Assembly: GCA_022825825.1 (NCBI GenBank)
Contig: JAJDWA010000027.1
Location: 572-64,571, forward strand
Direction: 5' to 3'
DNA length: 64,000 nt
Origin: Candidatus Poribacteria bacterium
Lineage (GTDB): Bacteria; Poribacteria; WGA-4E; WGA-3G
The notes under the pieces were generated by a model. It did not search any database and was not told the DNA's origin. It saw only the letters and a list, made by a program, of their open reading frames with translations. Positions 7,635-35,185 of the stretch are shown one piece after another; within the stretch, counting starts at the first letter, position 1, and each line of letters begins with the position of its first letter. The position numbers and the translations under genes are program-made.

Positions 7635-8024
7635 TCAAATAGTTTCGGGAAGAAAATCAAATGCGTTTTCAATCTGATCAAGTTGTAGCAATTCAAATTG
7701 TGGCGACAGATGGATTGCGATCACATCAAAACGGCAAGGAGCATCTAACAAGTTTTGTGTTTGTAAATACGCCAATGCTATCTTAGAAATTTGCCGTTGC
7801 TTCTGCTCTGTCACAGCGGACTGTGGCAAGCCATACTTTAAACTACGCCGTGTTTTAACCTCAACAAAAACGATTCTTTTATCTTGCTGTGCAATAAGGT
7901 CAATTTCACCGCGTTGGAAACGGTAATTTTGTGCAAGAATCTGGTAACCTTGTGCTTTAAGATGTTCCGCAGCAAATGTTTCACCAATTTTTGCAATGTT
8001 TGGCAGTGAACGCCGCATTTGCAT
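7635..8024 (-). CDS. yraN: YraN-family (UPF0102) endonuclease.
   Basis: GETFAAEHLKAQGYQILAQNYRFQRGEIDLIAQQDKRIVFVEVKTR is the YraN signature. The gene has the conserved position downstream of rnhB. Confidence 0.8.
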   Translation of the reverse strand: MQMRRSLPNIAKIGETFAAEHLKAQGYQILAQNYRFQRGEIDLIAQQDKRIVFVEVKTRRSLKYGLPQSAVTEQKQRQISKIALAYLQTQNLLDAPCRFDVIAIHLSPQFELLQLDQIENAFDFLPETI

Positions 8025-8055
8025 TTCCTCGAATCATCGCGAACTGATAGATTCC

Positions 8056-8676
8056 CTATGAATCTGAAAGCAATTTGAACGTATTCCTATGAATTGCTGA
8101 AGCGCCGAACTGGGCAATCGCTTGACGATGTTGTGCTGTGGGATATCCTTTGTGTTGCGCAAACCCGTAATTTGGATATGTTTGATGAAATTCAATCATC
8201 AACCTATCGCGCGTCGTTTTAGCGATAACCGAAGCCGCAGCGATAGACAGACTCAAGTTATCACCTTTCGGAATTGCTTGTGCTGGAATGTTAGTTTTCG
8301 GCAGCTTGGAACCATCTACAAGCAAATAATCAGGTTTCGGTGTGAGTTGTTGGACAGCTTCCGCCATAGCCCGCAGCGCAGCTTGTAAGATATTAAGTTC
8401 CTCAATTAGACGATTATCTACTGAACCGACACCGACTGAAATAGCAACACTTTGGATTTCATTCGCCAGCAACGAACGTTGTTTTGGAGTCAATTGTTTG
8501 GAATCTTTTAAACCATCAATTTCACAATCGACGGGCAAGATAACCGCAGCAGCAACGACCGGACCTGCTAATGCACCTCTACCCGCTTCGTCAATTCCAG
8601 CAATTCGCTTGTACCCCATCTGTAAGCAAGCACGCTCAAAAGCGTACATTTTGTTATCTTCTCTGTTCCTTGACAC
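8056..8676 (-). CDS. rnhB: Ribonuclease HII.
   Basis: [24 protein letters not shown]...[10 protein letters not shown]...LVDG. The true start may be the internal Met at 8649; that start would remove the 23-nt overlap with rplS. Confidence 0.85.
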
Positions 8677-8998
8677 GTGCAGATTTTCCTGTACGATCCC
8701 TCAAATAGTATAACTTTGCGCGCCGAACAGCACCGTATCGAACGACCCGAATACTTTCTATATTGGGTGAATGAAGTGGAAATGTTCTTTCACTTCCTGT
8801 GCCAAATGCGACGCGGCGGACAGTAAAAGTGGCACGGGTGCCACCATGTGCACGCCGAATCACGGTGCCTTCATAAGCTTGAATACGTTCCTTCTGTCCC
8901 TCTCGAATGCGGGTATTGACTCTTACTACATCGCCAGGACCAAACTCAGGAATATCAGTTTTTTTATATTGGTTTTCTACGGATTCAATCAAATTCAT
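8654..8998 (-). CDS. rplS: 50S ribosomal protein L19.
   Basis: [47 protein letters not shown] is a canonical L19. Confidence 0.9.
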
Positions 8999-10582: not shown

Positions 10583-11971
10583 TTATTTACGCCGTTTACG
10601 TTTCCGAGGCTTTCTTTTTTTTCGCTGTGTTTGGGGGAGCATACCCATTTTGCCAGCAATCTTCGGCATTGCCATCGATGTTTGCTGGTTTAGCAGGTTA
10701 TTCATCATTCGGAGTTGGGAAACCAACTGATTAACCTGATTGACCGAAGTACCACTTCCTTTGGATATACGGACTTTCCTACTCCTGTCTAATAGAGCAG
10801 GATTCCCTCGTTCTGCAGGTGTCATAGACTGTATCATGGCTTTGGCATATTTGAGATTATTCTCATCCGGTTGCAGGTCTTTGACAGGTAACTGGTTTTT
10901 AAAAGGAACGAGATCCAACAATTGGTCGAGAGGGCCCATATTTTTAAGTTGTTCAAGCTGCGTGAGAAAATCGTTAAAATCTAACCCCTTTTTCTCTGTT
11001 AGCTTACGTTCCAATTCACGGGCTTGGTCTTCGTTGAAAACAGCCTCTGCTTTTTCCATCAGCGTTTGGAAATCGCCTTGTCCAATAATACGCGACGCCA
11101 TCCGTTCGGGATGAAATTCCTCAAGTGCAGCTGCTTCAATCTTTTCTCCGACACCGATGAATTTAATCGGTTTCTCTGTGACAGAACGGATAGAAAGTGC
11201 CGCACCACCCCGCGCGTCCCCATCCATTTTGGTCAAGATAACACCACTAATATCCAAATCGTTATTGAAATTCTCAGCAACGTTCACAGCGTCCTGACCT
11301 GTCATAGCATCAACAACAAGCAGAATCTCAGAAGGGTTCACCGCATCTTTGATACGCTGTAGTTCTTCCATCAATGTTTCATCAATGTGCAAACGACCTG
11401 CTGTATCTATGATAATGCAATCGTAACCGCGTTTTAGGGCGTCTTGCACCGAATCCTTAGCAATGTCAACAGGGGATACGTCAGTCCCTTGTGCAAAAAC
11501 AGGGGTTTCAATCTGTTCCCCAAGCACCTGCAGCTGCTTGATAGCAGCAGGACGATAAACATCAGCTGCAACGAGCATCGGATTGCGACCGTCCTTACGA
11601 AATTTGAGTGCCAATTTCGCTGCGACTGTAGTCTTACCAGCACCTTGCAAGCCTGCTAACATGACAACTGTCGGCCCGGTGGGCGCAATTTGAATCTTTG
11701 CAGATTCAATCCCCATCAACGTTGTCAATTCCTCTTTGATAATCTTTGCGATTTGAAGCTCAGGTGTGAGGCTGCCCATCACTTCCTGACCAAGCGCACG
11801 CACTTTGATATTTTCTATAAAATCGCGCGTGACCTTATAGTTTACGTCTGCCTCTAAAAAGGCGCGACGCACTTCACGCAGGGAATCAGAGATATTATTC
11901 TCTGTCAATTTTCCTTGACCTTTTATCTTTTTAAAGGTGCTTTGTAATCGTTCGCTTAGACTCTCAAACAT
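10583..11971 (-). CDS. ffh: Signal recognition particle protein Ffh.
   Basis: NG domain with GLQGAGKTT, DTAGRL, and an M-domain basic tail. Confidence 0.92.
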   Translation of the reverse strand: MFESLSERLQSTFKKIKGQGKLTENNISDSLREVRRAFLEADVNYKVTRDFIENIKVRALGQEVMGSLTPELQIAKIIKEELTTLMGIESAKIQIAPTGPTVVMLAGLQGAGKTTVAAKLALKFRKDGRNPMLVAADVYRPAAIKQLQVLGEQIETPVFAQGTDVSPVDIAKDSVQDALKRGYDCIIIDTAGRLHIDETLMEELQRIKDAVNPSEILLVVDAMTGQDAVNVAENFNNDLDISGVILTKMDGDARGGAALSIRSVTEKPIKFIGVGEKIEAAALEEFHPERMASRIIGQGDFQTLMEKAEAVFNEDQARELERKLTEKKGLDFNDFLTQLEQLKNMGPLDQLLDLVPFKNQLPVKDLQPDENNLKYAKAMIQSMTPAERGNPALLDRSRKVRISKGSGTSVNQVNQLVSQLRMMNNLLNQQTSMAMPKIAGKMGMLPQTQRKKRKPRKRKRRK

Positions 11972-11987
11972 GTCTACGCATCCTTTA

Positions 11988-12511
11988 TCAAAGGGATTTA
12001 GTTATAGAATTATAGCAGGTTTTATCGGTTCTGTCAAGTTTTTTTATATACCTGACAATAACTTCGCTGGTATTAATTAAAAGCGGATATCTCCTGGGTG
12101 CTACTTGTCCCGCGATGGTGATATAAGGATGTGAGATCCTTAATTTGCTTTCAAGGGTGATCGTACCTGAAACCGTGAATACGACTATCCGGGGTCCTTT
12201 TGTATCTATTGCCTCGCGCAAGCTGCCGGGTCCGGAGTCGTTCAGATTCGTCACCAAGATGACTTTGCCGCCTCTACCACCGCGAGTGATTGCGCCATAA
12301 CCTTCTGCACCCGGAAATGCGGGAACTTGCGGCGTCTCTGCTGCAAATCCGTTTGGAAGCAGTGTGAGGATGCCAAGACATATAAGCAGTAGGTATTTTA
12401 TTGTGTCAGGACTTACGCATTCCCCTGATAAGGGGGAGGGGGTTTAAAAGTCCCTATTTTGGTGTTTTTAACCCTCTAAATCTCCTTATCAGTGGGACTT
12501 AAAAAAATGCG
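11988..12511 (-). pseudogene. Truncated, frameshifted remnant of a secreted pectate-lyase-like (right-handed beta-helix) protein.
   Basis: The ORF 11988..12257 encodes ...[17 protein letters not shown]... and stops after about 90 aa. Upstream in the same frame is a signal peptide ([41 protein letters not shown]) with no in-frame start. The only ATG (12511..12509; MRKS then stop) is +1 out of frame and lies inside an inverted repeat. Confidence 0.45.
12407..12511. repeat. A roughly 105-bp nested inverted-repeat element.
   Basis: Outer arms tcaggacttacgcat / atgcgtaagtcctga. Inner arms ctgataagg / ccttatcag. A 19-nt copy of the outer arm (acaggacttacgcattttt) recurs at 23147-23165. Confidence 0.55.
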
Positions 12512-12604
12512 TAAGTCCTGAGTTGTTATATTTTATTCTAATTTGCTCCTTTAGTTTTAGCACTCGGATTTTCGTCTCCGTTCAGGACGCAGATATCATC
12601 GTTT

Positions 12605-13186
12605 TCACTCAATATGCATATCTTGGTTTTCTTTTACCAAAGATATAACATAATTTGCGAAGTCATCATTAACCATCAGGTCAGAAATTTTAACGGCTAT
12701 TCGGTTAGCACGTCTTTCATGGTCAATACTGTTGACAAAATCCAAAATATCTTTGCGCGCTTCTTCAGCTGCAACATCAAGAGCTTTGTCAGCACCAAAC
12801 GCCCTTATCATGTCTAACAACTCTGAATCTGATTTGTCCACAAGTTCAGAATTATACTCATCCATAAAGCGTGTTGCGACTCGCCATGCAATTGGTGACA
12901 TAGCCGCAGCTATTTTTTCTTTTCGTATTCTCTCTTTTCGTTCTTTCCAAAGTCTTTCCGCCATCATAATCCCAGACATTATATATCCTCCCAATTCTAT
13001 AAAAAGTGTTGATAATAGTAGAAAGAGTGGAATTAAAGCACTTATGTTGATCAGAGTGGATTGTAATGATTTCTTTTCGTCTATCCATAGCCAATATGGG
13101 AGAATCATTGCCGCTGCAATCCATATTCCTATAGGCATCCACTTCTTGATGATTTCTCGCGCGTTTCCACTCTCTTCTTTAGCCAT
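12605..13186 (-). CDS. Hypothetical membrane protein (2 predicted TM helices plus a soluble C-terminal domain).
   Basis: A 193-aa ORF with hydrophobic segments IGIWIAAAMILPYWLWI and ALIPLFLLLSTLFIELGGYIMSGIM. No recognisable motif. Confidence 0.45.
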   Translation of the reverse strand: MAKEESGNAREIIKKWMPIGIWIAAAMILPYWLWIDEKKSLQSTLINISALIPLFLLLSTLFIELGGYIMSGIMMAERLWKERKERIRKEKIAAAMSPIAWRVATRFMDEYNSELVDKSDSELLDMIRAFGADKALDVAAEEARKDILDFVNSIDHERRANRIAVKISDLMVNDDFANYVISLVKENQDMHIE

Positions 13187-13320
13187 TTATTTAGGTGTTC
13201 GCTTTAAAGGTTGCAATCCAGTGGTAAATCTCAGCGTTCCACTAACGTATTACTATACCACAAAAAGGACTAAATCTCAAGTTATGGTAAAATCTGAATA
13301 TATGTTCACATTTCCCAGCA

Positions 13321-13395
13321 GGTTCGGTTTCTAACCACACCATTTACAAGTTCGGTTAGGAAACCGAACTTGTAAATGCCAAAAAGCATATTTAG
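13321..13395. repeat. Perfect 18-bp-stem hairpin with the GGTTAGGAAACC core.
   Basis: catttacaagttcggtt-agg-aaaccgaacttgtaaatg, preceded by ggttcggtttctaacc. Confidence 0.55.
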
Positions 13396-13444
13396 CGTTA
13401 ATTCGTAGTGTCCAAATAACCACTTGTTTTACAATAAAAGCAAT

Positions 13445-13480
13445 AGGCGCGGTTTGAAACCGCGCCTACAACGAAAATGA
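13445..13480 (-). terminator. Candidate rho-independent terminator for the LamG gene (also a member of the taggcg...cgcctac hairpin family).
   Basis: GC-rich stem aggcgcggttt/aaaccgcgcct, followed on the minus strand by ttgcttttattgtaaaa. Confidence 0.4.
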
Positions 13481-13502
13481 ATATTTCAGATTTTACGGTA
13501 AA

Positions 13503-14297
13503 CTAACGCTGAGTAGCCTTTAGTCTTCCCCATGTAGTCGTCAATTTGCCACGCGCTTCAACAGCCAGATGTTCAGTGATACCACTGTTCATAATGGATT
13601 CAACTTCTTCATGCGTTAACCCGCGTTTCCAGACGTTTAATTCATCCATGAGTCCGTTAAAAGGACGGTTATTGTCGATGTTATACCCAACGCGCGCACC
13701 CTGCCCCCAATCTCCTGCGATAGGCGTTCCTACAAGTGCCTTTTGCTCCTGAACTTTGACACCGTTGATGTAGAGATAAGCCATTCCTTCTTCTCGACTG
13801 AACGTGCCAGCATAATGCACCCAATCTTTGGCTTTATTTGTACCTCCACGGATATCAAATATCTTTACACCACCAGCACTCCGATTCAACCAACGATAAT
13901 TGCCGTCTCCACGTGCCTCCGGGTGTACAAGCCACGTGCTGTCTCCTGCACGGGCATTGAAAATTGCCATATCTGCGACTGCTTCAACATTGATCCAGGC
14001 AACAACACTCATCCCCTCTGTCGGAATATGTTCAGGATCAACGTTTGCACCGTCCAAATCAAGAAAACTACCTGATGCAAAATGTGCAGCTTTTCCAAAC
14101 TTACCATCGTTAGACTGTGTCACCTTTCCCATGATTTTGCCATCATAACCGTACCCGGATTTTTCTATAACATCTCCACCCTTAAACTCTTCAAAATCGA
14201 AATAAAGCACTAAATCCGGATCTAATACATCAGCGGACAAACCGCTCATTTGAAATGTCAATAGTAGACATACGAGAATTACTATACTTTGTTGCAT
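13503..14297 (-). CDS. Secreted LamG/concanavalin-A-like lectin domain protein.
   Basis: Start chosen at MQQSIVILVCLLLTFQMSGLSA (signal peptide; ATG 14297..14295). The body is LamG_3-like (...AHFASGSFLDLDG...FNGLMDELNVWKRGLTHEEV). Confidence 0.65.
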   Translation of the reverse strand: MQQSIVILVCLLLTFQMSGLSADVLDPDLVLYFDFEEFKGGDVIEKSGYGYDGKIMGKVTQSNDGKFGKAAHFASGSFLDLDGANVDPEHIPTEGMSVVAWINVEAVADMAIFNARAGDSTWLVHPEARGDGNYRWLNRSAGGVKIFDIRGGTNKAKDWVHYAGTFSREEGMAYLYINGVKVQEQKALVGTPIAGDWGQGARVGYNIDNNRPFNGLMDELNVWKRGLTHEEVESIMNSGITEHLAVEARGKLTTTWGRLKATQR

Positions 14298-26465: not shown

Positions 26466-28604
26466 TTACCTAAGGATGCTAAATTTGCCAATTTGTCGGA
26501 CAACCGAATCTGCTTGTGTTGCAGCAATGTGGTAAATATAGATACCGGAAGAGAGCGGTGTTCCACGAAGGTTTGAACCGTCCCAATGAAATTTTCCGGG
26601 GGCAAGGACATCCTGATGTGTCTTGCTGTAGACTTTCTCGCCTTTAATAGTGAAGATTTCAAGGGACACGGTGTCTGCGGACTGGGAGGCAGAGAGTTGA
26701 TACGCAAACGTCATTTCAGATGCAGATGTTGATGGACGAAAAGGGTTCGGATAAACACGGGCCTGTGTGAGAGCAAAAGATTCGGGGTCGAGTTGTTCTA
26801 CGAACAATTTATATGATGCAACGCTGCTGAATCCGTTATTAGATGTTACCACAAGATATAACGTCTGTTGAGCAGAAGGTTGGTAAAGAATTTGGTATCC
26901 GAGTAGATTAGCTGCTTTTTCACCTATTGCTAACGTCTCTCCTGTCATTGTCAAGAGCGATAAACGGTAATCCAGATTTTCTGGAAAATCTGATAATGTT
27001 GCGCGGACTGTTACACCGCCAGCAGCTTCAATTCTATAAGAATCCTGGGTATCCGAAGCATCGTATAAAAAGGAGTAATAAGGCTGACCGTAGAAAATAG
27101 GAAACGCTGTTTCTACGGTATTGTTCGGTTCATAAGTATCACCAAATGAAACGAGCATCTTCATGACTGGACCTTCAGGTCCAATATTAGTTATAGATAT
27201 ACCGGTTGGCGTTCCATCGTTCGCACTGCTGTTGGGTAGAGTTCCTGGAGTAAACGCAGTTTGGTCATCATTGGCAGAATAAGCTGCGCCTTCAGTGACA
27301 GTTTGAATGTCTATAAAACCAGGATCATCGGGGCGAATGCCAAGATGTTCAGGATCGTTAGGGTCTTCAAGCCAAATCTGTTGTGCGGCATCATAACTAC
27401 GAAGGTCACGCACCTGTGTCTCATCAATGTGCCAAATGAGAATGCCAGATTCGGGTAAATAGGTATCAAAGGTAGCTCCGGAGGCTTTGTACCGGTTTTC
27501 AATGAGAAAAAATTCTTTGTTAGTTGCAGCACGTGCTTCCCGCACATGTGGAATATCAATTTTGAAAAGTTTGTCTGTTTTCGGAGATAATTCAAAAGCT
27601 GGAACAGATATCGGACCACTTTGAGTAATGTTAACAGGTTTAATCCAACCAACGCGACCATTTTCTGGGCGTGCATCAAAATCCCATTTCAGGTACCCTA
27701 TGATGTGACTGGGTGCTAATCCGTCCCCTAAACCAAAAACTTCCTGACCTTGATATGGACCGAATGCACCCATCAATCCCCATTTATGATCGCGAGCATC
27801 TGTGAAGTTTAGCCCGTAGACATCTGGCGCCCCGAAATCATGAAAAAATTCATGAAAGTAGATACCTAAGTGAGGTTTATCGAAATCTGGCTCTTCGGCG
27901 ACAAGGACGGCGGTATCAACGCGAACACCGTCAACGATAATATTGACATCCGGTGTTAAGACCGACCAGATATCATTAACTGCCTTAACTGGGTCTATTG
28001 CGGTGTAGGATGCTTCGTCATTCCCCGCATGAATGATAAATAGATGGTCAACGACACCATCTTTGTCACGATCGTATTTTGAAAAATCGACGGTTGCGTC
28101 TACAGCACGACACGCTTCGGCGATTAATTCCCGATAACGTTGAATAGGTCCTGGCCCTCTATTTTCTCCATAGTAACGCATCGGTTTCTGCGCGCGAATC
28201 CATTGGTCGTCTTCAGGGAGAACACCTCCAACAGGTCCCGGCTGCACATCCATCTGTCCGTAAGAATTTTCGCGAAAGTAGGTTTTTAGGGAAACACCGG
28301 TTTCTGCAAATAGATATTCATTGAATTCAGCGCTTGTTCTTTTTCCCGGTTGATCGCTGAAGTCAATTTTGAGAGCAAGGACATATTCTATGCCATCCGG
28401 TTGTAGCACACTCTGTTCTCTTGCGAAGCAACAGCCATCCAACGCTTGTAAATATTTTGAGATACTGAGTTCAGAATTCTGCCCAGCGGAAGGTTTCGGC
28501 TTCACTTCACCGGTAACTGGATCGATGTCAAAATAGAGATAGGGGTTAGGGGGAGCAGCAAGACTAAATGTTGTAGTCGTGAGGATACATCCTAAGCAGA
28601 GCAT
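26466..28604 (-). CDS. Secreted M6-like (immune-inhibitor-A type) zinc metalloprotease with a C-terminal T9SS sorting domain.
   Basis: HEFFHDFGAPDVYG is an HExxH zincin motif. Signal peptide MLCLGCILTTTTFSLAA (start chosen at 28604 so as not to overlap the upstream gene). The C-terminus (RVYPNPFRPS...IYIYHIAATQ...KFSILR) looks like a T9SS CTD. Confidence 0.65.
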   Translation of the reverse strand: MLCLGCILTTTTFSLAAPPNPYLYFDIDPVTGEVKPKPSAGQNSELSISKYLQALDGCCFAREQSVLQPDGIEYVLALKIDFSDQPGKRTSAEFNEYLFAETGVSLKTYFRENSYGQMDVQPGPVGGVLPEDDQWIRAQKPMRYYGENRGPGPIQRYRELIAEACRAVDATVDFSKYDRDKDGVVDHLFIIHAGNDEASYTAIDPVKAVNDIWSVLTPDVNIIVDGVRVDTAVLVAEEPDFDKPHLGIYFHEFFHDFGAPDVYGLNFTDARDHKWGLMGAFGPYQGQEVFGLGDGLAPSHIIGYLKWDFDARPENGRVGWIKPVNITQSGPISVPAFELSPKTDKLFKIDIPHVREARAATNKEFFLIENRYKASGATFDTYLPESGILIWHIDETQVRDLRSYDAAQQIWLEDPNDPEHLGIRPDDPGFIDIQTVTEGAAYSANDDQTAFTPGTLPNSSANDGTPTGISITNIGPEGPVMKMLVSFGDTYEPNNTVETAFPIFYGQPYYSFLYDASDTQDSYRIEAAGGVTVRATLSDFPENLDYRLSLLTMTGETLAIGEKAANLLGYQILYQPSAQQTLYLVVTSNNGFSSVASYKLFVEQLDPESFALTQARVYPNPFRPSTSASEMTFAYQLSASQSADTVSLEIFTIKGEKVYSKTHQDVLAPGKFHWDGSNLRGTPLSSGIYIYHIAATQADSVVRQIGKFSILR

Positions 28605-28623
28605 TATGAATACAAAATGCCTG

Positions 28624-29946
28624 TTAATCAAATTCACCACCACATTTCCTGCACAAGATATAGAATTGGATGTCATCAGAATGAGCATGTTGTTTAATGA
28701 GATCAACTGCTTGGTCCGGCAAATCTGCTTCACATTTTTGGCACTTATAGAGCGAACCTTCTGGCTCAGGAAATTTTCTGATATCCCCCCAGATATCATG
28801 AAGCCAGTATTTAAATTCCCATGGAAACTCAGCCTCAACAGCTTTAGATATCTCTACTGCATGCCGAATTAATTTTTGACACTCTTCAAAGGTTGCAGGT
28901 TCATACGGGTGAGGTTCCGTGTGTAGAGGAATCGGTTTGCCTTCGGATACGGTTTCTGGGTTAAATCTGCGAGAACGTGTCAACAAGATTTGGTCTAACC
29001 GTGTCCCTTGTTCTCTGCCTTTTGACCAGACTCGGTAATAGCCGCGTCGTTTGACATTAAAATAACCAGGAGTTGACTTGCCGAGCGGATGTGTTGAAGT
29101 ATCCCATAACCAACGGTTCCATTTGGAATCGTCGCCAGGGACTGCCCAAATTTTGATTGCATTCGGGCCACCTTGTTCGTCCCAAGGATAAGGTTCTGCA
29201 TCTTCAATGCCTATCCAGTAAGAGTCTTGACTGCCTGATTTATAATAGGTGCGAATCCATACGTACCACTTACCCGTTTTTGGGATGTAAACTTCATAAA
29301 TACCGCGTGCATTTCTTGCACTCTCAATGGCTTTTCCGTTAGAAGCCTCTTCGTCGTCCACCACTATCACACCATTATCAAAATGCATCGCAGTTTCGGC
29401 TTCAATGATAAGCGTATTTCTTGGGACACGAATTAATTCTTGCCTTGTATTTTTTTCTTCTCGCTCAGTATCTTCTTCTTGTTCCTCTTCTTCTGGGAGT
29501 GTTTGTTCCGGTTCAGTATAACTATTTCCGAACCGTTGACATGCACGTTCAAATTGTTTTTCGGAAAGATTTGCATCGTAAAAGCAATCTCGGACTCCTT
29601 TTTTCCAGAGGTCCAGGAGAAGAAACATGGCTTTTAGATTTCCGTCGGGCCGTTTGCGGGTGCCAACAACAATGAACATGCCGGTATCTCGTGAGCGGCT
29701 GACAAGACATAGATGGAGTGGATATTCGGGCGAGGCAACTTTTCTGCTTTTGACGATGAGTGGACTATAGTATTTACAACGATGGTCACATCCGGGTATT
29801 TTCGCCCGTTTAGCACTGCAGCATTCTGGGCAAATTATCATGCTACTGAGAGCAGGGCATGCGCGTTTACCATTACCGGAACGGCATGTGCGGCATCTTT
29901 GCTGTTTGGTGCGTTTTTGTCTGGTAGAAAGTCTCTGATGGCGCAT
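28624..29946 (-). CDS. Hypothetical protein with N- and C-terminal Cys-rich zinc-ribbon-like motifs.
   Basis: A 440-aa protein. N-terminal part is basic with CRTCRS...CPECCS...CDHRC. Acidic linker (EEEEQEEDTEREE). Trp-rich central domain (WYVWIRTYYKSGSQDSYWIG...). C-terminal CQKCE...CRKCGGEFD. No family recognised. Confidence 0.55.
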   Translation of the reverse strand: MRHQRLSTRQKRTKQQRCRTCRSGNGKRACPALSSMIICPECCSAKRAKIPGCDHRCKYYSPLIVKSRKVASPEYPLHLCLVSRSRDTGMFIVVGTRKRPDGNLKAMFLLLDLWKKGVRDCFYDANLSEKQFERACQRFGNSYTEPEQTLPEEEEQEEDTEREEKNTRQELIRVPRNTLIIEAETAMHFDNGVIVVDDEEASNGKAIESARNARGIYEVYIPKTGKWYVWIRTYYKSGSQDSYWIGIEDAEPYPWDEQGGPNAIKIWAVPGDDSKWNRWLWDTSTHPLGKSTPGYFNVKRRGYYRVWSKGREQGTRLDQILLTRSRRFNPETVSEGKPIPLHTEPHPYEPATFEECQKLIRHAVEISKAVEAEFPWEFKYWLHDIWGDIRKFPEPEGSLYKCQKCEADLPDQAVDLIKQHAHSDDIQFYILCRKCGGEFD

Positions 29947-29978: not shown

Positions 29979-30080
29979 GTGAATTATAAAAATAAATTGA
30001 CACTCTCATTCTCGGTAGGCGAGGTTTCCTAACCTCGCCAGTGTAGCGTGTTCAAGTAATTCTAAAACCTACTATATATG
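29979..30080. repeat. Family-2 MITE/REP-like element (short form).
   Basis: gtgaattataaaaataaattgacactctcattctcggtaggcgaggtttcctaacctcgcc...aaacctactatatatgg. Its ends match the 38662-38866 copy and the core hairpin ggcgaggtttcctaacctcgcc. Confidence 0.6.
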
Positions 30081-30197
30081 GCAGAATTTGAATACAGAAA
30101 TATGCCATTATGCTGCCAACGAATAGCATTTGCAGTCGAAACTTAAACAGGACTGTTAACTTGGGCGGTTAACCAGATCAGCGAGATATTCTACGAT

Positions 30198-32561
30198 TTA
30201 TTCGGTATCCACATCTACATCCACATGCACATCGGGAGCGTCACTTGGGCGGTTAACCAGATCAGCGAGATATTCTGCGATTTTGTCTGTGATTTGTCCG
30301 GCATCTACATCGGCAAAATTAAAGAGTTCCTTAAGCATCGGTGAAATCGCACCTGTGTCAAGGAGCGTATTTGCAAGACGTCCCATGCTGCTTCGGTTGA
30401 TACCGCCTTTACCATCGTTGTTGCCCATATCAAGAATTTTGATGCTGTCAATTTGCTCTACAGGACGCATCATTTGTTCAATAATGTCAGGGGCTTCTTC
30501 AATTAATTCTAAGATTGCTTCTTGGACCAGGACACGTTGTTCGGCAACGTTACGGGCTTCATATTCCGCCATTTCACCTTGTGCTTTCGCTCGTGCTTCG
30601 GACAACACAGCATCAGCAAGACGTTCAATCGGTTGTGCTTGTGCTTCGGCACCGAGGATTGCAACATCACGTTGCCATTCAGCACCTTTTATCTGTTCGG
30701 TAGCAGTAACATTGACTTCCGCCTCCATACGTTCTGCTTCAGCCTCTAACTGCTCTTTTTCTGCAAGTGCAGTAAGCTGCTGTTTATTGGCAACATCAAT
30801 CTTTCTATCTTCGTCAGTGAGAGCGACACGTAATTCTTGACCGATACGGGATTGCTCGACCGTCAACATTTTATTAATTTCAGTAAGTTCCACCTGTTTG
30901 TTTTGGTCGATTTGTGCGGTTTCAACAACGAGGTTCTTCTCAATCTCACGTTGTTGCACCTGTTGTTCTTGTGCGAATTTCGCAGTTTGCACAGTCAACT
31001 CTCGTTCAACATCTCGCAACTCAACACCCTCTTCCTGAGCGATGCGCGCTTTTTCTACGAAGAGTTGCTTTTCAAACTCACGCTCTTGTACCTGTTGTTC
31101 CATACCGATTTTGTTGACATCAACCGCTAACGTCTTGGCGATCTCTGTGAGTTCCACCTGTTTGTTTTGGTCGATTTGTGCGGTTTCAACAACGAGGTTC
31201 TTCTCAATCTCACGTTGTTGCACCTGTTGTTCTTGTGCGAATTTCGCAGTTTGCACAATTAAGTCTCGCTCAACATCTCGCAACTGAACACCCTCTTCCT
31301 GAGCGATGCGGGCTTTTTCTACCATGAGCTGCTTCTCTATCTCGCGAACTTCAATTGTCTGTTCCTGTTCAATTTTTTCCATTTGAACAGTAAGATGTTG
31401 TGCGATTTCAGCGAGTTGAACGACTTTAGTTTGGTCGATCTGTGCGGTTTCAACAACGAGGTTCTTCTCAATCTCACGCTGCTGCACCTGTTGTTCTTGT
31501 GCAAATGTTGCTGTTTGAACCTCCAATTCTAACTCAACTTCTCGTAATTGGACACCCTCTTCTTGAGAAATACGTGCGCGTTCAACTTCCAACTTCATTT
31601 CGTATTCACGTTCTTGAACGCTCTGCTCCATCTCAAATTGGAACTTTATAGTTTCGGCTTCCCGTTCCGCAGCATAGATAGCGATATTTTTCTGCTGGTC
31701 GGATTCTCCCCAGGCCTGTTCCTGCTCTAATTCAAGTTCTCGGAGACGCGCTTCAACATTAATTTGTACGATGGCAACCTCTTTCGCTTTGATGGCAGCC
31801 TCTTTATCTCGCTCTTGTTCAGCAGTAATTTCAGTGATTTCGCGGATACCGACAGCATCAAATCGGTTGTCTGGACTTAGTATATCAATGGGGGTTTGAT
31901 CAACCCGAATAATGGAAACAGTATCGAGTGTCAAACCATTATCGAGTTTCAGATTTTCTCCACAAGTATCTTGAACTTTGTCTGCGAATTCGACACGTTT
32001 TTGTAGAAGATCCTGAATTTCACTTTCAGCGGCAACGCTTCTTATGGCACCGTCCAACATCGGTTCAATTAATTCGCGAATAGTTTCAGGCGTCATGGAT
32101 TTATCGCCGAGGGCTTGGGCAGCCTTTAAAATGTCGTCCTCAATTGGATCAACCTTAATATAAAAAACGACTTCAACATCAGCACGGTTGAAGTCTTTGG
32201 TAATCAAGGAATCGGTGGTTTCTCGGACCACCTCAATTCGCATGGTGTTGAGAGATATCTCTTTAATTTCATGAATAATCGTGTTAACCCAGAGACCACT
32301 GGTAATACGAATCTTTTCCCTTGCACCACCTGTTCTAACCAAGGCTATATCAGCTTTTGGTATCCTATAGCGGATAACAGAACCTATAAAAGCAGCCAAA
32401 GCTCCAAATAAGACAACCGCAATAAGGCCCATCCAGCGCAAGGTATTAGGTTCATTGGCTTGGTTTTCACCATCACCATCCGGCATCAGAAAATTATAGG
32501 CGAAATATCCGATGGCACATACAACAACAATTAGAAATACAACAACAAGAATGAGACGCAT
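30198..32561 (-). CDS. Flotillin/SPFH (band-7) family protein with an extended coiled-coil built from 88-aa tandem repeats.
   Basis: N-terminal TM segments followed by an SPFH domain (ADIALVRTGGAREKI...). Three nearly identical 88-aa repeats (...VQTAKFAQEQQVQQREIEKNLVVETAQIDQNKQVELTEI...) and a C-terminal flotillin-like tail. Confidence 0.8.
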   Translation of the reverse strand: MRLILVVVFLIVVVCAIGYFAYNFLMPDGDGENQANEPNTLRWMGLIAVVLFGALAAFIGSVIRYRIPKADIALVRTGGAREKIRITSGLWVNTIIHEIKEISLNTMRIEVVRETTDSLITKDFNRADVEVVFYIKVDPIEDDILKAAQALGDKSMTPETIRELIEPMLDGAIRSVAAESEIQDLLQKRVEFADKVQDTCGENLKLDNGLTLDTVSIIRVDQTPIDILSPDNRFDAVGIREITEITAEQERDKEAAIKAKEVAIVQINVEARLRELELEQEQAWGESDQQKNIAIYAAEREAETIKFQFEMEQSVQEREYEMKLEVERARISQEEGVQLREVELELEVQTATFAQEQQVQQREIEKNLVVETAQIDQTKVVQLAEIAQHLTVQMEKIEQEQTIEVREIEKQLMVEKARIAQEEGVQLRDVERDLIVQTAKFAQEQQVQQREIEKNLVVETAQIDQNKQVELTEIAKTLAVDVNKIGMEQQVQEREFEKQLFVEKARIAQEEGVELRDVERELTVQTAKFAQEQQVQQREIEKNLVVETAQIDQNKQVELTEINKMLTVEQSRIGQELRVALTDEDRKIDVANKQQLTALAEKEQLEAEAERMEAEVNVTATEQIKGAEWQRDVAILGAEAQAQPIERLADAVLSEARAKAQGEMAEYEARNVAEQRVLVQEAILELIEEAPDIIEQMMRPVEQIDSIKILDMGNNDGKGGINRSSMGRLANTLLDTGAISPMLKELFNFADVDAGQITDKIAEYLADLVNRPSDAPDVHVDVDVDTE
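30888..31680. repeat. Three tandem, near-identical 264-bp repeats inside the flotillin gene.
   Basis: The block gttccacctgtttgttttggtcgatttgtgcggtttcaacaacgaggttcttctcaatctcacgttgttgcacctgttgttcttgtgcgaatttcgcagtttgcac recurs at about 30888, 31152 and 31416. The period is 264 bp, which equals 88 codons, so it is in-frame. Confidence 0.85.
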
Positions 32562-32600
32562 TAATTTCTCCTATTATAAATATCACTTCAGAAATTGTTT

Positions 32601-34016
32601 CTATTGGAAGAGCATGTCACTGTTTTGGTTTGTCCTATAACGTCCCTTGAGCGGTTGGCGTGGAGAGGTTTGCCACGCGAGACTCGCAAGATAACAGAGT
32701 GTATTTTCAATTAAAGGTTTAGCGACAGCTGTTTTATGAGCATCCCGTGTATCTACGGCAAAACCAACGTAGTATCCGTCACCCCACTGTAATTGAATCC
32801 CGATAGGACCGTTATTATCTTCTCTGACTACCAACTTTCGATAACTTGGATCATTCGTAATCCAATGGTCGTCCGTCACCAAATTATCAACGTTGATCTT
32901 ATGGGGCCATGTAAACATGCCAGTTTTTTGACCGTCCTCGGTAATAGTTACGTTGGAATCCTCAGCACCAACGACGTCAATAGGATGCCGATCTACAGGC
33001 AGCCAGTCGCCACGCCATGCAGATTCAGATGCATGGACACCATCAGGCGGCACGATATTATTATCCATTGCCGATGTCCAAACAACACCACCTTTTCTAA
33101 CGAAGTCTTTGATTGCATCATCAGCGTCTTCGACAAAATACTCTCCGTCATGCCCCGTGGCAAACCAAGTGAACCAAATAATATCATAATTAGTAAGCGT
33201 AACGTTGGAGAGCTTTACAGCATTATTTGAGTCGCCTCGGTTATCAGGGTTATCGTTAATATGGACTGTTGTATATTGAAATTCTAAACCTTCAAGCGTT
33301 GTGAGAGATTGCAAAACGGCAGGTTCACCTGTCAGATTATCGCCTACAACAATCAGCACGCGAAAGACACCTAACGGCACAATCTTTATGGAGGACATGA
33401 TGTCGGAAAACGATTGTGAGTGGGGTAGATCGCGAAGATTCCGGATTGATTTCTGGAATTCGCGAGAGTTTAGGTCTATATTAATCTTACGCCCCTCAAA
33501 ATTCACATGCTCATAAAAAATGATATGGCATCCACTGAACGGGAAATTCGGACCACGCTGGATACGGACAGAAGAGATCATATCGTTCATGCCGACTTCA
33601 AACATTGAACTGACATCACGCATGATCAGACTCCGCCGTCCGCTGAAATCCACATCGCTAAACACCTCTATGACGACAGGAACAGCGCCATACACCGGCG
33701 GGGTAGGATGTGCAGCTGGGCTAAAACTTATAGATGTGATCGCATCACCGAAATTGTACGGTATCTCATGGATGTTCGGGTAAAATCCTGGCGCTAAAAC
33801 CAATCGTCTGCCTTTATATTTTTCATGTTCGTGAAAAATCGCTTTGTAGTTGGGAGACGCACTAAAGCCAGGTCCCTGGTATATCTTAATAGAAGAGATT
33901 ACGTCCTGAGCACCTATTTCGGTTGTATTCGGGATGGATTCTACAAGGGTAATCTTGCGTCCATGATAATTGACATGTTCAAAGACTTCAACGACTAACC
34001 TCGGTGTGCTCGCCAT
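32601..34016 (-). CDS. Two beta-gamma-crystallin domains fused to a ThuA/class-I-glutamine-amidotransferase-like domain.
   Basis: Four Greek-key motifs ((F/Y)xxxx(Y/F)xG...S): VFEHVNYHGRKITL, IFHEHEKYKGRRLVL, VFSDVDFSGRRSLI, IFYEHVNFEGRKINI. C-terminal roughly 270 aa (VLIVVGDN...DIIWFTWFATGHDGE...) looks like ThuA/DUF4159. It lies 40 nt upstream of the flotillin gene on the same strand. Confidence 0.65.
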   Translation of the reverse strand: MASTPRLVVEVFEHVNYHGRKITLVESIPNTTEIGAQDVISSIKIYQGPGFSASPNYKAIFHEHEKYKGRRLVLAPGFYPNIHEIPYNFGDAITSISFSPAAHPTPPVYGAVPVVIEVFSDVDFSGRRSLIMRDVSSMFEVGMNDMISSVRIQRGPNFPFSGCHIIFYEHVNFEGRKINIDLNSREFQKSIRNLRDLPHSQSFSDIMSSIKIVPLGVFRVLIVVGDNLTGEPAVLQSLTTLEGLEFQYTTVHINDNPDNRGDSNNAVKLSNVTLTNYDIIWFTWFATGHDGEYFVEDADDAIKDFVRKGGVVWTSAMDNNIVPPDGVHASESAWRGDWLPVDRHPIDVVGAEDSNVTITEDGQKTGMFTWPHKINVDNLVTDDHWITNDPSYRKLVVREDNNGPIGIQLQWGDGYYVGFAVDTRDAHKTAVAKPLIENTLCYLASLAWQTSPRQPLKGRYRTNQNSDMLFQ

Positions 34017-34312
34017 TTATCTCCCCTTTGCTGAAGGTTATTATGTTTATTTTAGTTTAATAACTATTATATCATTGAATTAAGGGGTTGTCAAGGAAAA
34101 AGGGAGCGAATGTTACTTTTTGCACTTGACTCCTCAAAAAAAATATGATAAATTTTTACAACATAGTTGTTCATAAAAATGTCCTTATTTATCAGAAAGG
34201 TTTCTTTATTGATTTTTTGAAAGTCATGTCTAATAGTTGGTAAACTCTCGGACTGTTCCTTCTCGACTGTATATTCGATACATCTTTTACAAGAAGATAG
34301 AGGGTAACACCG

Positions 34313-35185
34313 ATGCGCAATAACAAAATTTTTGTTTTATTCTGCTTTATAGGTATTAGTGCTTTCCTGGTCTACTTTCTTATAAAGATAGAAGACTCTG
34401 AGCGGAAAAAGAAAGCTGCTACTGCCCCAATTGAACTACCCTATACTTGGGTAGGCAATATTAGCAAAACAACAATCGCTGAACCTTCTGGCGTAACCTA
34501 TCACCCAATACGGCGAACTCTATTTGTTGTGGACGATGAGGGGCATATTTATGAGATTCGCCCAGACGGGACGGTTATTCAGACGAAGGCACTGCAAGCG
34601 CGTGATCTTGAAGGAATTACGACTAACCCCACAACAGGATGGCTTTATGCGGCTGTTGAGGATGATGAAGCCATTTTGGAAATTAGTCCACAGACACTTA
34701 CGATCCATCGAGAATTTAAAATCAATCGTACTTTCGAGGGAAAACCCCTTCTTAAAAAAGGAGGCATGGGAATAGAGGCAATAGCCTTTGTTCCGGACGC
34801 ATCGCACCCAGAGGGCGGAACTTTTTGGATTGGCAATCAATCATTTAGCCGAAAACCTGACGGGGAACCGTCAATTATATGTGAAGTGGTTGTGCCGCTT
34901 CTCACCTCCGAAGCAGCAGAAGCGGAAGTTAAAATTATCCGTTTCTTTAAGATGGGGTTCTTGGATATTTCTGGACTTGCCTACAACGCAAAGGCAGATT
35001 CTCTTGTCCTAATCAGCGATACAACGAACCTTTTGGTAGAACTAAAACGTGATGGAACAAACCTTCATCGCTACTTGTTACCGGGTGATGACCAAGAAGG
35101 TATTACGTTAGATGGACTCGGCTATATGTATATTGCACAGGAAAGTGGACAGATCATCAAGTTGGCTGATCGAAGGCTCCGTTAA
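34313..35185 (+). CDS. SdiA-regulated / YjiK-like beta-propeller domain protein (membrane-anchored).
   Basis: N-terminal TM anchor. IAEPSGVTYHPIRRTLFVVDDEGHIYEI...DLEGIT...GGMGIEAIAFVP matches the SdiA-regulated (PF06977) pattern. Confidence 0.65.
   Translation: MRNNKIFVLFCFIGISAFLVYFLIKIEDSERKKKAATAPIELPYTWVGNISKTTIAEPSGVTYHPIRRTLFVVDDEGHIYEIRPDGTVIQTKALQARDLEGITTNPTTGWLYAAVEDDEAILEISPQTLTIHREFKINRTFEGKPLLKKGGMGIEAIAFVPDASHPEGGTFWIGNQSFSRKPDGEPSIICEVVVPLLTSEAAEAEVKIIRFFKMGFLDISGLAYNAKADSLVLISDTTNLLVELKRDGTNLHRYLLPGDDQEGITLDGLGYMYIAQESGQIIKLADRRLR

Follow-up and report, generated by a model that had tools for sequence, protein, structure and literature searches.

In prokaryotes, the operons of SPFH proteins typically pair the SPFH gene with a gene for NfeD, as in yuaF-floT of Bacillus subtilis and yqiJ-yqiK of Escherichia coli. 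The human flotillin cage is a 44-mer with a height of 22 nm, its two ends measuring 32 nm and 19 nm across (PMC11260169). The wall of this cage is a single-layer right-handed helical barrel to which each subunit contributes 186 residues, devoid of heptads and charged on both faces, and the length of CC1 was proposed to set the size of the flotillin complex (PMC11260169). Here we describe a locus in a 64,000-nucleotide stretch of Candidatus Poribacteria DNA (assembly GCA_022825825.1, contig JAJDWA010000027.1, positions 572 to 64,571; hereafter the window), in which a flotillin-type SPFH protein built on tandem 88-amino-acid (aa) units is encoded between a beta-gamma-crystallin/GATase1-like fusion and a third conserved gene. 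The number of units varies from two to five between species. We propose that this locus specifies a Poribacteria-specific membrane-scaffold module, composed of a cage-forming flotillin and two dedicated soluble partners, and consider the chances of this reading to be about even.

The core features, all on the minus strand, are the following.
32601..34016, minus strand: gene 1, crystallin fusion, 471 aa, soluble (open reading frame and Pfam)
33381..34004, minus strand: two beta-gamma-crystallin domains of gene 1, aa ~5-98 and ~111-212 (Pfam, PDB alignment)
32631..33377, minus strand: GATase1-like (flavodoxin-like) C-terminal domain of gene 1, aa ~214-462 (model and Foldseek)
30198..32561, minus strand: gene 2, flotillin-type SPFH protein, 787 aa (open reading frame and Pfam)
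32367..32555, minus strand: N-terminal hairpin of gene 2, hydrophobic segments aa ~3-25 and ~43-65 (sequence)
31881..32351, minus strand: SPFH/Band_7 domain of gene 2, aa 71-227 (Pfam)
30840..31631, minus strand: three tandem units of 264 nucleotides (nt) or 88 aa in gene 2 (repeat searches, translation)
30318..30650, minus strand: flotillin C-terminal domain (Pfam Flot) of gene 2, aa 638-748 (Pfam)
28624..29946, minus strand: gene 3, Poribacteria-specific protein, 440 aa, conserved downstream of the flotillin

As a preliminary description of the locus had stated, the 471-aa and 787-aa reading frames lie in close succession; the spacer between them measures 39 nt and contains a GGAG-type ribosome-binding site, and the arrangement looks like an operon. 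The assignment of the 787-aa protein to the SPFH/flotillin proteins was confirmed by Pfam matches above the gathering scores for both Band_7 (54.5 bits versus 23.6) and Flot (67 bits versus 27). The same description called this flotillin giant, which holds in a relative sense only, its 787 aa comparing with 678-944 aa in Poribacteria relatives. Against the NCBIfam FloT equivalog NF058507 the protein scored 24 bits, far below the cut-off of 700, so it is not a FloT orthologue. The two hydrophobic segments of the N-terminal hairpin are linked by an acidic loop and followed by RYRIPK, and by the positive-inside rule the SPFH domain and the helices that follow are predicted to face the cytoplasm. 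This architecture of an SPFH domain, a long helix and a Flot C-terminal domain is consistent with the eukaryotic flotillin-1/2 cage and with other SPFH cages (HflK/C, prohibitin, erlin and stomatin). The anchors differ, being a two-segment N-terminal hairpin in the Poribacteria flotillin and lipidation in eukaryotic flotillin.

The region between Band_7 and Flot (aa ~235-640) is predicted to be helical and contains no proline across its ~405 residues, as compared with 186 in human flotillin. Within it, the 88-aa unit resolves into four 22-aa rows (eight of 11 aa), with the consensus EIEK.L.VETAqIaQEQQVQLR recurring in 13 consecutive rows; this sub-period had been overlooked in the preliminary description, as had the third conserved gene and the restriction of the locus to Poribacteria. 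The hydrophobicity spectrum of the helix peaks at 5.5 and 2.75 residues and not at 3.5. Because hydrophobic residues placed every 5.5 positions alternate between opposite faces of an alpha-helix, this periodicity predicts two seams ~180 degrees apart with a spacing of 11 residues. Such opposite seams would suit a helix that has a neighbour on either side, as in a right-handed barrel one layer thick. Like the flotillin-1/2 wall, then, the Poribacteria helix is without heptads, rich in E, Q, K and R, and provided with two opposite seams; unlike it, the helix is built of duplicated 88-aa modules whose number varies by species.

At the other end of the protein, a direct repeat of 34 nt, identical in both copies (30243-30276 and 30159-30192, minus strand, 84 nt apart) spans the flotillin stop codon. 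The acidic tail of the window flotillin, DAPDVHVDVDVDTE, occurs only in the clade of the window (L006-L015), and the second 34-nt copy would encode "...DLVNRPS*", which is the ancestral flotillin C-terminus of other clades. The acidic tail thus appears to have arisen by a small duplication.

The 264-nt repeat is real and far beyond chance. Tandem Repeats Finder reported a period of 264 nt with 2.5 copies, 83 % matches and a score of 866, and a second repeat search returned three copies at 100, 85 and 71 %. The units correspond to aa 311-398 (31368-31631), 399-486 (31104-31367) and 487-574 (30840-31103). The three units of 88 aa that had been announced are thus present; they are not the perfect or almost identical copies described, given DNA identities of 70 % (units 1 and 2), 69 % (units 1 and 3) and 83 % (units 2 and 3) and protein identities of 69-81 %. 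One block of 108 nt is exactly shared by units 2 and 3, and one quarter of 66 nt is near-identical in all three. Between units, synonymous and non-synonymous codon differences are about equal in number.

We considered whether the block could be an assembly artefact, either expanded or collapsed, an outcome that the preliminary description had itself named as refuting. One close relative fits a collapse: L010 (PYJA01000119.1), a short-read metagenome-assembled genome (MAG), carries two units, of which the second is a chimera that starts (5') as unit 2 and switches to unit 3 within the 108-nt block identical between units 2 and 3. This allele represents either unequal crossing-over caught fresh or a short-read assembly collapse. 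For the block at large, units that differ by 17-31 % in DNA are easy to assemble, and the three-unit structure is seen again in dozens of genomes obtained independently, among them single-contig chromosomes and contigs of several megabases; states with two, four and five units likewise occur on contigs >1 Mb. On these grounds the artefact was rejected, and we regard it as very improbable.

The history of the units is mixed. Unit 1 is old: it has orthologues across genomes, and in most clades its identity to the other units is ~50 %. Units 2 to n are 80-95 % alike. The window units 2 and 3 each have their own orthologues in related species. The earlier claim that the repeats are recent or actively homogenised consequently stands in part. 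That all are recent was rejected on account of the great age of unit 1 and of the orthology of units 2 and 3 between species, and "recent" fits only the extra units of the four- and five-unit alleles. Homogenisation is seen locally: unit-2 sequence has replaced quarters 2-3 of unit 1 in the clade of the window and in a few clades close to it, a pattern that reads as a gene-conversion tract.

The proneness to copy-number variation suggested earlier was borne out. We searched the complete flotillin genes of 80 species-representative Poribacteria loci with a hidden Markov model of the unit and found two units in 18 species, three in 52, four in 6 and five in 4. Flotillin homologues come in discrete sizes, and the proteins of these classes measure 678-702, 764-792, 844-856 and 942-944 aa, respectively, and every class was found on contigs >1 Mb or whole chromosomes. 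Fitch parsimony on a neighbour-joining tree, built from the flotillins outside the repeat, required at least 20 changes of copy number, and sister species differ. A rival explanation would make this protein an ordinary flotillin scaffold, in which the repeat is a tolerant spacer that drifts neutrally by slippage or unequal crossing-over and the neighbouring genes are co-transcribed with independent functions (e.g. in stress or storage). Frequent flips, even between sister species, are what neutral length variation predicts, all the domains belong to known families, and the interaction with the partners is itself only inferred. Less expected of a neutral spacer is that the steps are always whole 88-aa quanta, with the reading frame and the 22-aa register kept in 80/80 species.

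The conservation of gene order bears on the same rival. We searched the 80 loci by tblastn with the proteins of the window and found the crystallin fusion, the flotillin, the 440-aa gene and an M6 peptidase gene on one strand and in the same order in ~76 of them, which answers the question, raised in the preliminary description, of whether the first two genes are conserved as a pair. Among the exceptions, L071 and L081 are contig ends, and L018, L021 and L057 show an insertion or lack the downstream genes. L021 has an insertion of ~1 kb (7817-8896) that separates the crystallin gene from the flotillin gene; L018 has one of ~3.3 kb (10768-14133) between the flotillin and gene 3; and the flank of L057 yielded neither gene 3 nor the M6 peptidase. 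Two divergent loci, L002 and L003 (64-69 % identity), retain the first three genes within other surroundings: nuo genes follow downstream, and both the M6 peptidase and the SdiA-like gene that adjoins the window locus are missing. Beyond these, two distant crystallin-fusion homologues (50-53 % identity; 462 and 685 aa) are followed immediately by a Band_7 gene, whose products have long repeats of 22/88 or 106 aa; at a third distant locus (P0070) the downstream gene encodes 1116 aa and has no Pfam match. An order that outlasts deep divergence, changes of flank and duplication into homologous loci is unexpected for unrelated neighbours, and genes 1 and 2 are tightly spaced. We therefore hold the neutral spacer with independent neighbours to be rather unlikely.

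Some homologous loci (L086, 6527-12285; the P0070 locus; L004, 2151-9428) combine a DUF1349 (ConA-like)-crystallin protein, the fusion and an SPFH protein. The 685-aa homologue joins crystallin domains to two or three GATase1-like domains, and the SPFH period there is 106 aa; one homologue follows a secretin gene instead.

Compared with yuaF-floT and yqiJ-yqiK, the locus likewise places a flotillin-type gene directly after a partner gene and gives it an N-terminal anchor and a cytoplasmic bulk. It differs in that the upstream partner is a soluble crystallin/GATase1-like fusion and not the membrane protein NfeD, in the extra conserved third gene, and in a flotillin that is ~170-440 aa longer. 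No NfeD gene was present among the neighbours at this locus (crystallin fusion, gene 3, M6 peptidase, SdiA-regulated-like gene).

Homologues of genes 1-3 are confined to Candidatus Poribacteria wherever the source names an organism. The orthologues of this operon are transcribed in sponge tissue: in the Xestospongia sponge metatranscriptome, those of genes 1-3 in the Poribacteria single-amplified genome (SAG) 3G reached 708, 225 and 176 fragments per kilobase per million (FPKM), the first at ~0.9 times the housekeeping level (PMC5087111 supplement). These SAG 3G orthologues lie on contig_9.10, which is our L061, with gene lengths of 1416, 2301 and 1305 nt.

The 471-aa fusion begins with two beta-gamma-crystallin domains and four Greek keys, as originally described. 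Pfam Crystall (PF00030) matched two stretches of the protein (65.6 bits versus a cut-off of 25; E 4e-18), and beta-crystallin B3 from the PDB aligns with aa 10-179, spanning both domains. The four Y/FxxxxY/FxG Greek-key signatures and the motif serine are conserved across 44 homologues; the spacing of Greek key 2 is one residue longer in the window protein. The calcium-binding motif is defined as N/D-N/D-x-x-S/T-S (PMC3551895). Of the calcium-binding residues proposed for inspection, only those of Greek key 3 are canonical (NDMISS), the other three motifs reading QDVISS, GDAITS and SDIMSS. The domain pair thus resembles Myxococcus Protein S, vibrillin and M-crystallin in its four Greek keys, its motif serine and its single canonical N/D-N/D-x-x-S/T-S motif. 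It differs from microbial two-domain beta-gamma-crystallins in that three of the four calcium motifs are degenerate (Q, G or S at position 1), in its fusion to a GATase1-like domain, and in the adjoining SPFH gene. There is also no N-terminal signal peptide in the fusion, the first Greek-key strand beginning at residue ~7.

The C-terminal 260 aa of the fusion showed no match in Pfam (E <= 10) or NCBIfam, nor in the PDB by profile (E <= 10). The AlphaFold2 model of this domain, built from 46 sequences (pLDDT 89, pTM 0.87), gave 111 Foldseek matches against the PDB at E <= 1e-3, and the best 50 of the 111 were all GATase1-like. The top neighbours were the "trimerisation" domains of GH35/GH42 enzymes (7VKZ and 5XB7; E ~1e-7, template-modelling (TM) score ~0.5), and STM3548 (2GK3), STM1381 and TrpG/PabA were further neighbours among the matches listed. 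The ThuA-like 1T0B is one of many structures sharing this fold (E 4e-5, TM 0.52/0.58), so that scores across these neighbours range from E 1e-7 to 4e-5 at TM ~0.5. Of the ThuA/GATase1-like domain named in the preliminary description, the fold is thus supported by the model, and ThuA (PF06283) or any other sequence-level family was rejected for want of a profile match in Pfam, NCBIfam or the PDB. GATase1-like is, on the model, the right term for the fold; membership of a family is unsupported.

Unlike class-I GATase-like domains, this domain belongs to no such family at the sequence level and has no Cys-His-Glu triad. The strand VVWT is followed by an invariant serine, and the sole near-invariant cysteine sits in the last helix (LCYLASLAW), from which we conclude that the GATase nucleophile is absent. 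A Ser-His-Asp site (invariant S315, H344-P and a D/H cluster) was considered as a candidate. As the top fold neighbours are oligomerisation domains, the GATase1-like domain may serve to multimerise the crystallin pair. A full HMMER scan of 1.84 billion representatives (E <= 1e-3) returned a small family of 63 clusters, with some members standing alone and others fused to unrelated domains; distant relatives gave sub-threshold matches to DUF4159, GH42M and GATase_3. One protein, P0073 (466 aa), carries two tandem GATase1-like domains without crystallin domains.

The 440-aa product of gene 3 has no Pfam match. It is composed of an invariant N-terminal motif of eight cysteines, a small beta domain, an acidic linker, a central beta-sandwich and a conserved helical C-terminus that bears a CxxC...CxxC ribbon. 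In a model of moderate quality (pLDDT 74), the central beta-sandwich is CBM6/CBM35-like by Foldseek (5FUI, E 2e-6, TMt 0.74). Among the homologues of gene 3 (P0331-P0350), distant orthologues carry discoidin (F5/8 type C) or LamG domains in place of this central domain and keep both ends; sometimes it is duplicated. Gene 3 would accordingly encode a zinc-finger protein with a swappable lectin-like beta-sandwich.

Based on these observations, we propose the following mechanism. A promoter-like site before gene 1 would drive the synthesis of a soluble protein consisting of two beta-gamma-crystallin domains and a non-catalytic GATase1-like domain. The flotillin would be anchored by its N-terminal hairpin, leaving its bulk in the cytoplasm, and would most likely oligomerise into a membrane-attached cage with parallel helices side by side in a one-layer wall. 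Each 88-aa unit would be an extra length of the wall helix, and unequal recombination between units would add or remove whole modules, giving the two to five per species. Each module would add 88 x 0.15 nm, or ~13 nm, of helix, which corresponds to roughly 7 nm of height at the tilt of the human cage. The crystallin-GATase1-like and CBM6-like proteins would be dedicated cytoplasmic partners, acting as clients, caps or regulators, and would fill the operon position held by NfeD in canonical bacterial SPFH operons.

Several points weigh against this proposal. PDB sequence searches with the whole flotillin, its SPFH part and its C-terminal part gave no meaningful match, so the cage analogy rests on Pfam profiles and on the periodicity. 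In distant relatives the module periods are not always multiples of 11; the 106-aa period of L086 led us to reject a strict rule of this kind. Some of the two-unit alleles in short-read MAGs could be collapsed assemblies. One crystallin-fusion homologue (58 % identity) follows a secretin gene and has no SPFH neighbour. Crystallin, CBM6, discoidin and LamG domains, together with the M6 protease, are typically extracellular, which sits uneasily with a cytoplasmic cage.

The last two of these points lend themselves to another explanation, namely an envelope or host-interaction module in which the sponge symbiont exports the fusion together with the CBM6-like protein and M6 protease as "eukaryote-like" lectin or adhesion factors, and the flotillin organises their export or the release of membrane vesicles. 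The T9SS-like C-terminal domain of the M6 protease, the placement of that one homologue directly after the secretin gene, the DUF1349-crystallin genes near several homologue loci and the swapping of a sugar-binding-type domain of gene 3 between lineages all agree with it. It fits less well with the lack of an N-terminal signal peptide in both the crystallin fusion and gene 3, with the conserved CxxC clusters of gene 3, which are typical of cytoplasmic zinc ribbons, with the retention of the trio without the M6 protease in L002 and L003, and with the charge distribution, which predicts a cytoplasmic SPFH domain. We consider export unlikely; we still give it real weight, since for most of the partner domains an extracellular location is the rule.

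Returning to the cage-forming flotillin with dedicated partners, a bolder form of it can be envisaged, in which a tall cytoplasmic SPFH cage makes a protein-walled nanocompartment at the inner membrane. Its height would be quantised by the 88-aa modules (two to five, with larger numbers in homologues that reach ~1100 aa), and it would enclose, or be capped by, the crystallin/GATase1-like and lectin-like zinc-finger proteins. We regard this form as doubtful; if true, Poribacteria, for which compartmentation has long been suspected, would possess a bacterial compartment of a new kind.

All the domains of the locus are of known kinds. Literature searches for a link of crystallins with SPFH proteins, or of either crystallins or flotillins with Poribacteria, returned nothing relevant, and the series of two to five modules in an SPFH helix, the crystallin/GATase1-like fusion and the conserved association of that fusion with an SPFH protein plus a CBM6-like zinc-finger protein are apparently undescribed in the literature searched. 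SPFH cages have been solved only recently, and how the length of CC1 sets the size of the cage is an open question of design. The locus offers a natural allelic series of two, three, four and five equal-length modules in otherwise orthologous flotillins, which makes this question directly testable. It also provides a conserved set of SPFH partners other than NfeD, in an abundant uncultivated phylum of sponge symbionts. Should the partners prove to be clients of such a cage, they would provide a rare instance of a bacterial flotillin whose cargo can be read from the genome.

Around the core trio we identified three further features.
34066..34094, minus strand: promoter-like site, TTGACA-17 nt-TGnTATAAT (consensus match only)
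34313..35185, plus strand: SdiA-regulated/phytase-like beta-propeller gene, divergently transcribed, outside the core trio
26466..28643, minus strand: gene 4, secreted-type M6 (immune inhibitor A-like) metallopeptidase (open reading frame and Pfam)

The promoter-like site lies ~50 nt upstream of the ATG of gene 1 and combines 12/12 matches to the sigma-70 consensus with an extended -10 element. It was the single 12/12 site in the 9.5 kb scanned; the total of sigma-70-like sites in that scan was not above that of shuffled sequence. The SdiA-regulated/phytase-like gene is syntenic in most sponge-clade loci. The G+C content of the window is 43 %, and the best genome match was OZ241980.1 (97 % over the C-terminal domain).

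The M6 metallopeptidase gene overlaps the end of gene 3 (region 26466-28838, minus strand), its true start being uncertain (28643 or 28604), and its product ends in a FlgD_Ig/T9SS-like domain. This peptidase occurs in the sponge-symbiont clade and is missing from the divergent loci L002 and L003. In the relative P0299, gene 3 reads through into the signal-peptide region of the M6 peptidase. The 251-nt spacer between the flotillin and gene 3 contains a 9-bp GC-rich hairpin without a T-run (GGCGAGGTT-AGGA-AACCTCGCC; 30018-30039, minus strand), followed by a TGTCAA...TATAAT-like site. The hairpin could act as a partial terminator or processing site, and the site after it could be a second promoter serving gene 3 and the M6 peptidase.

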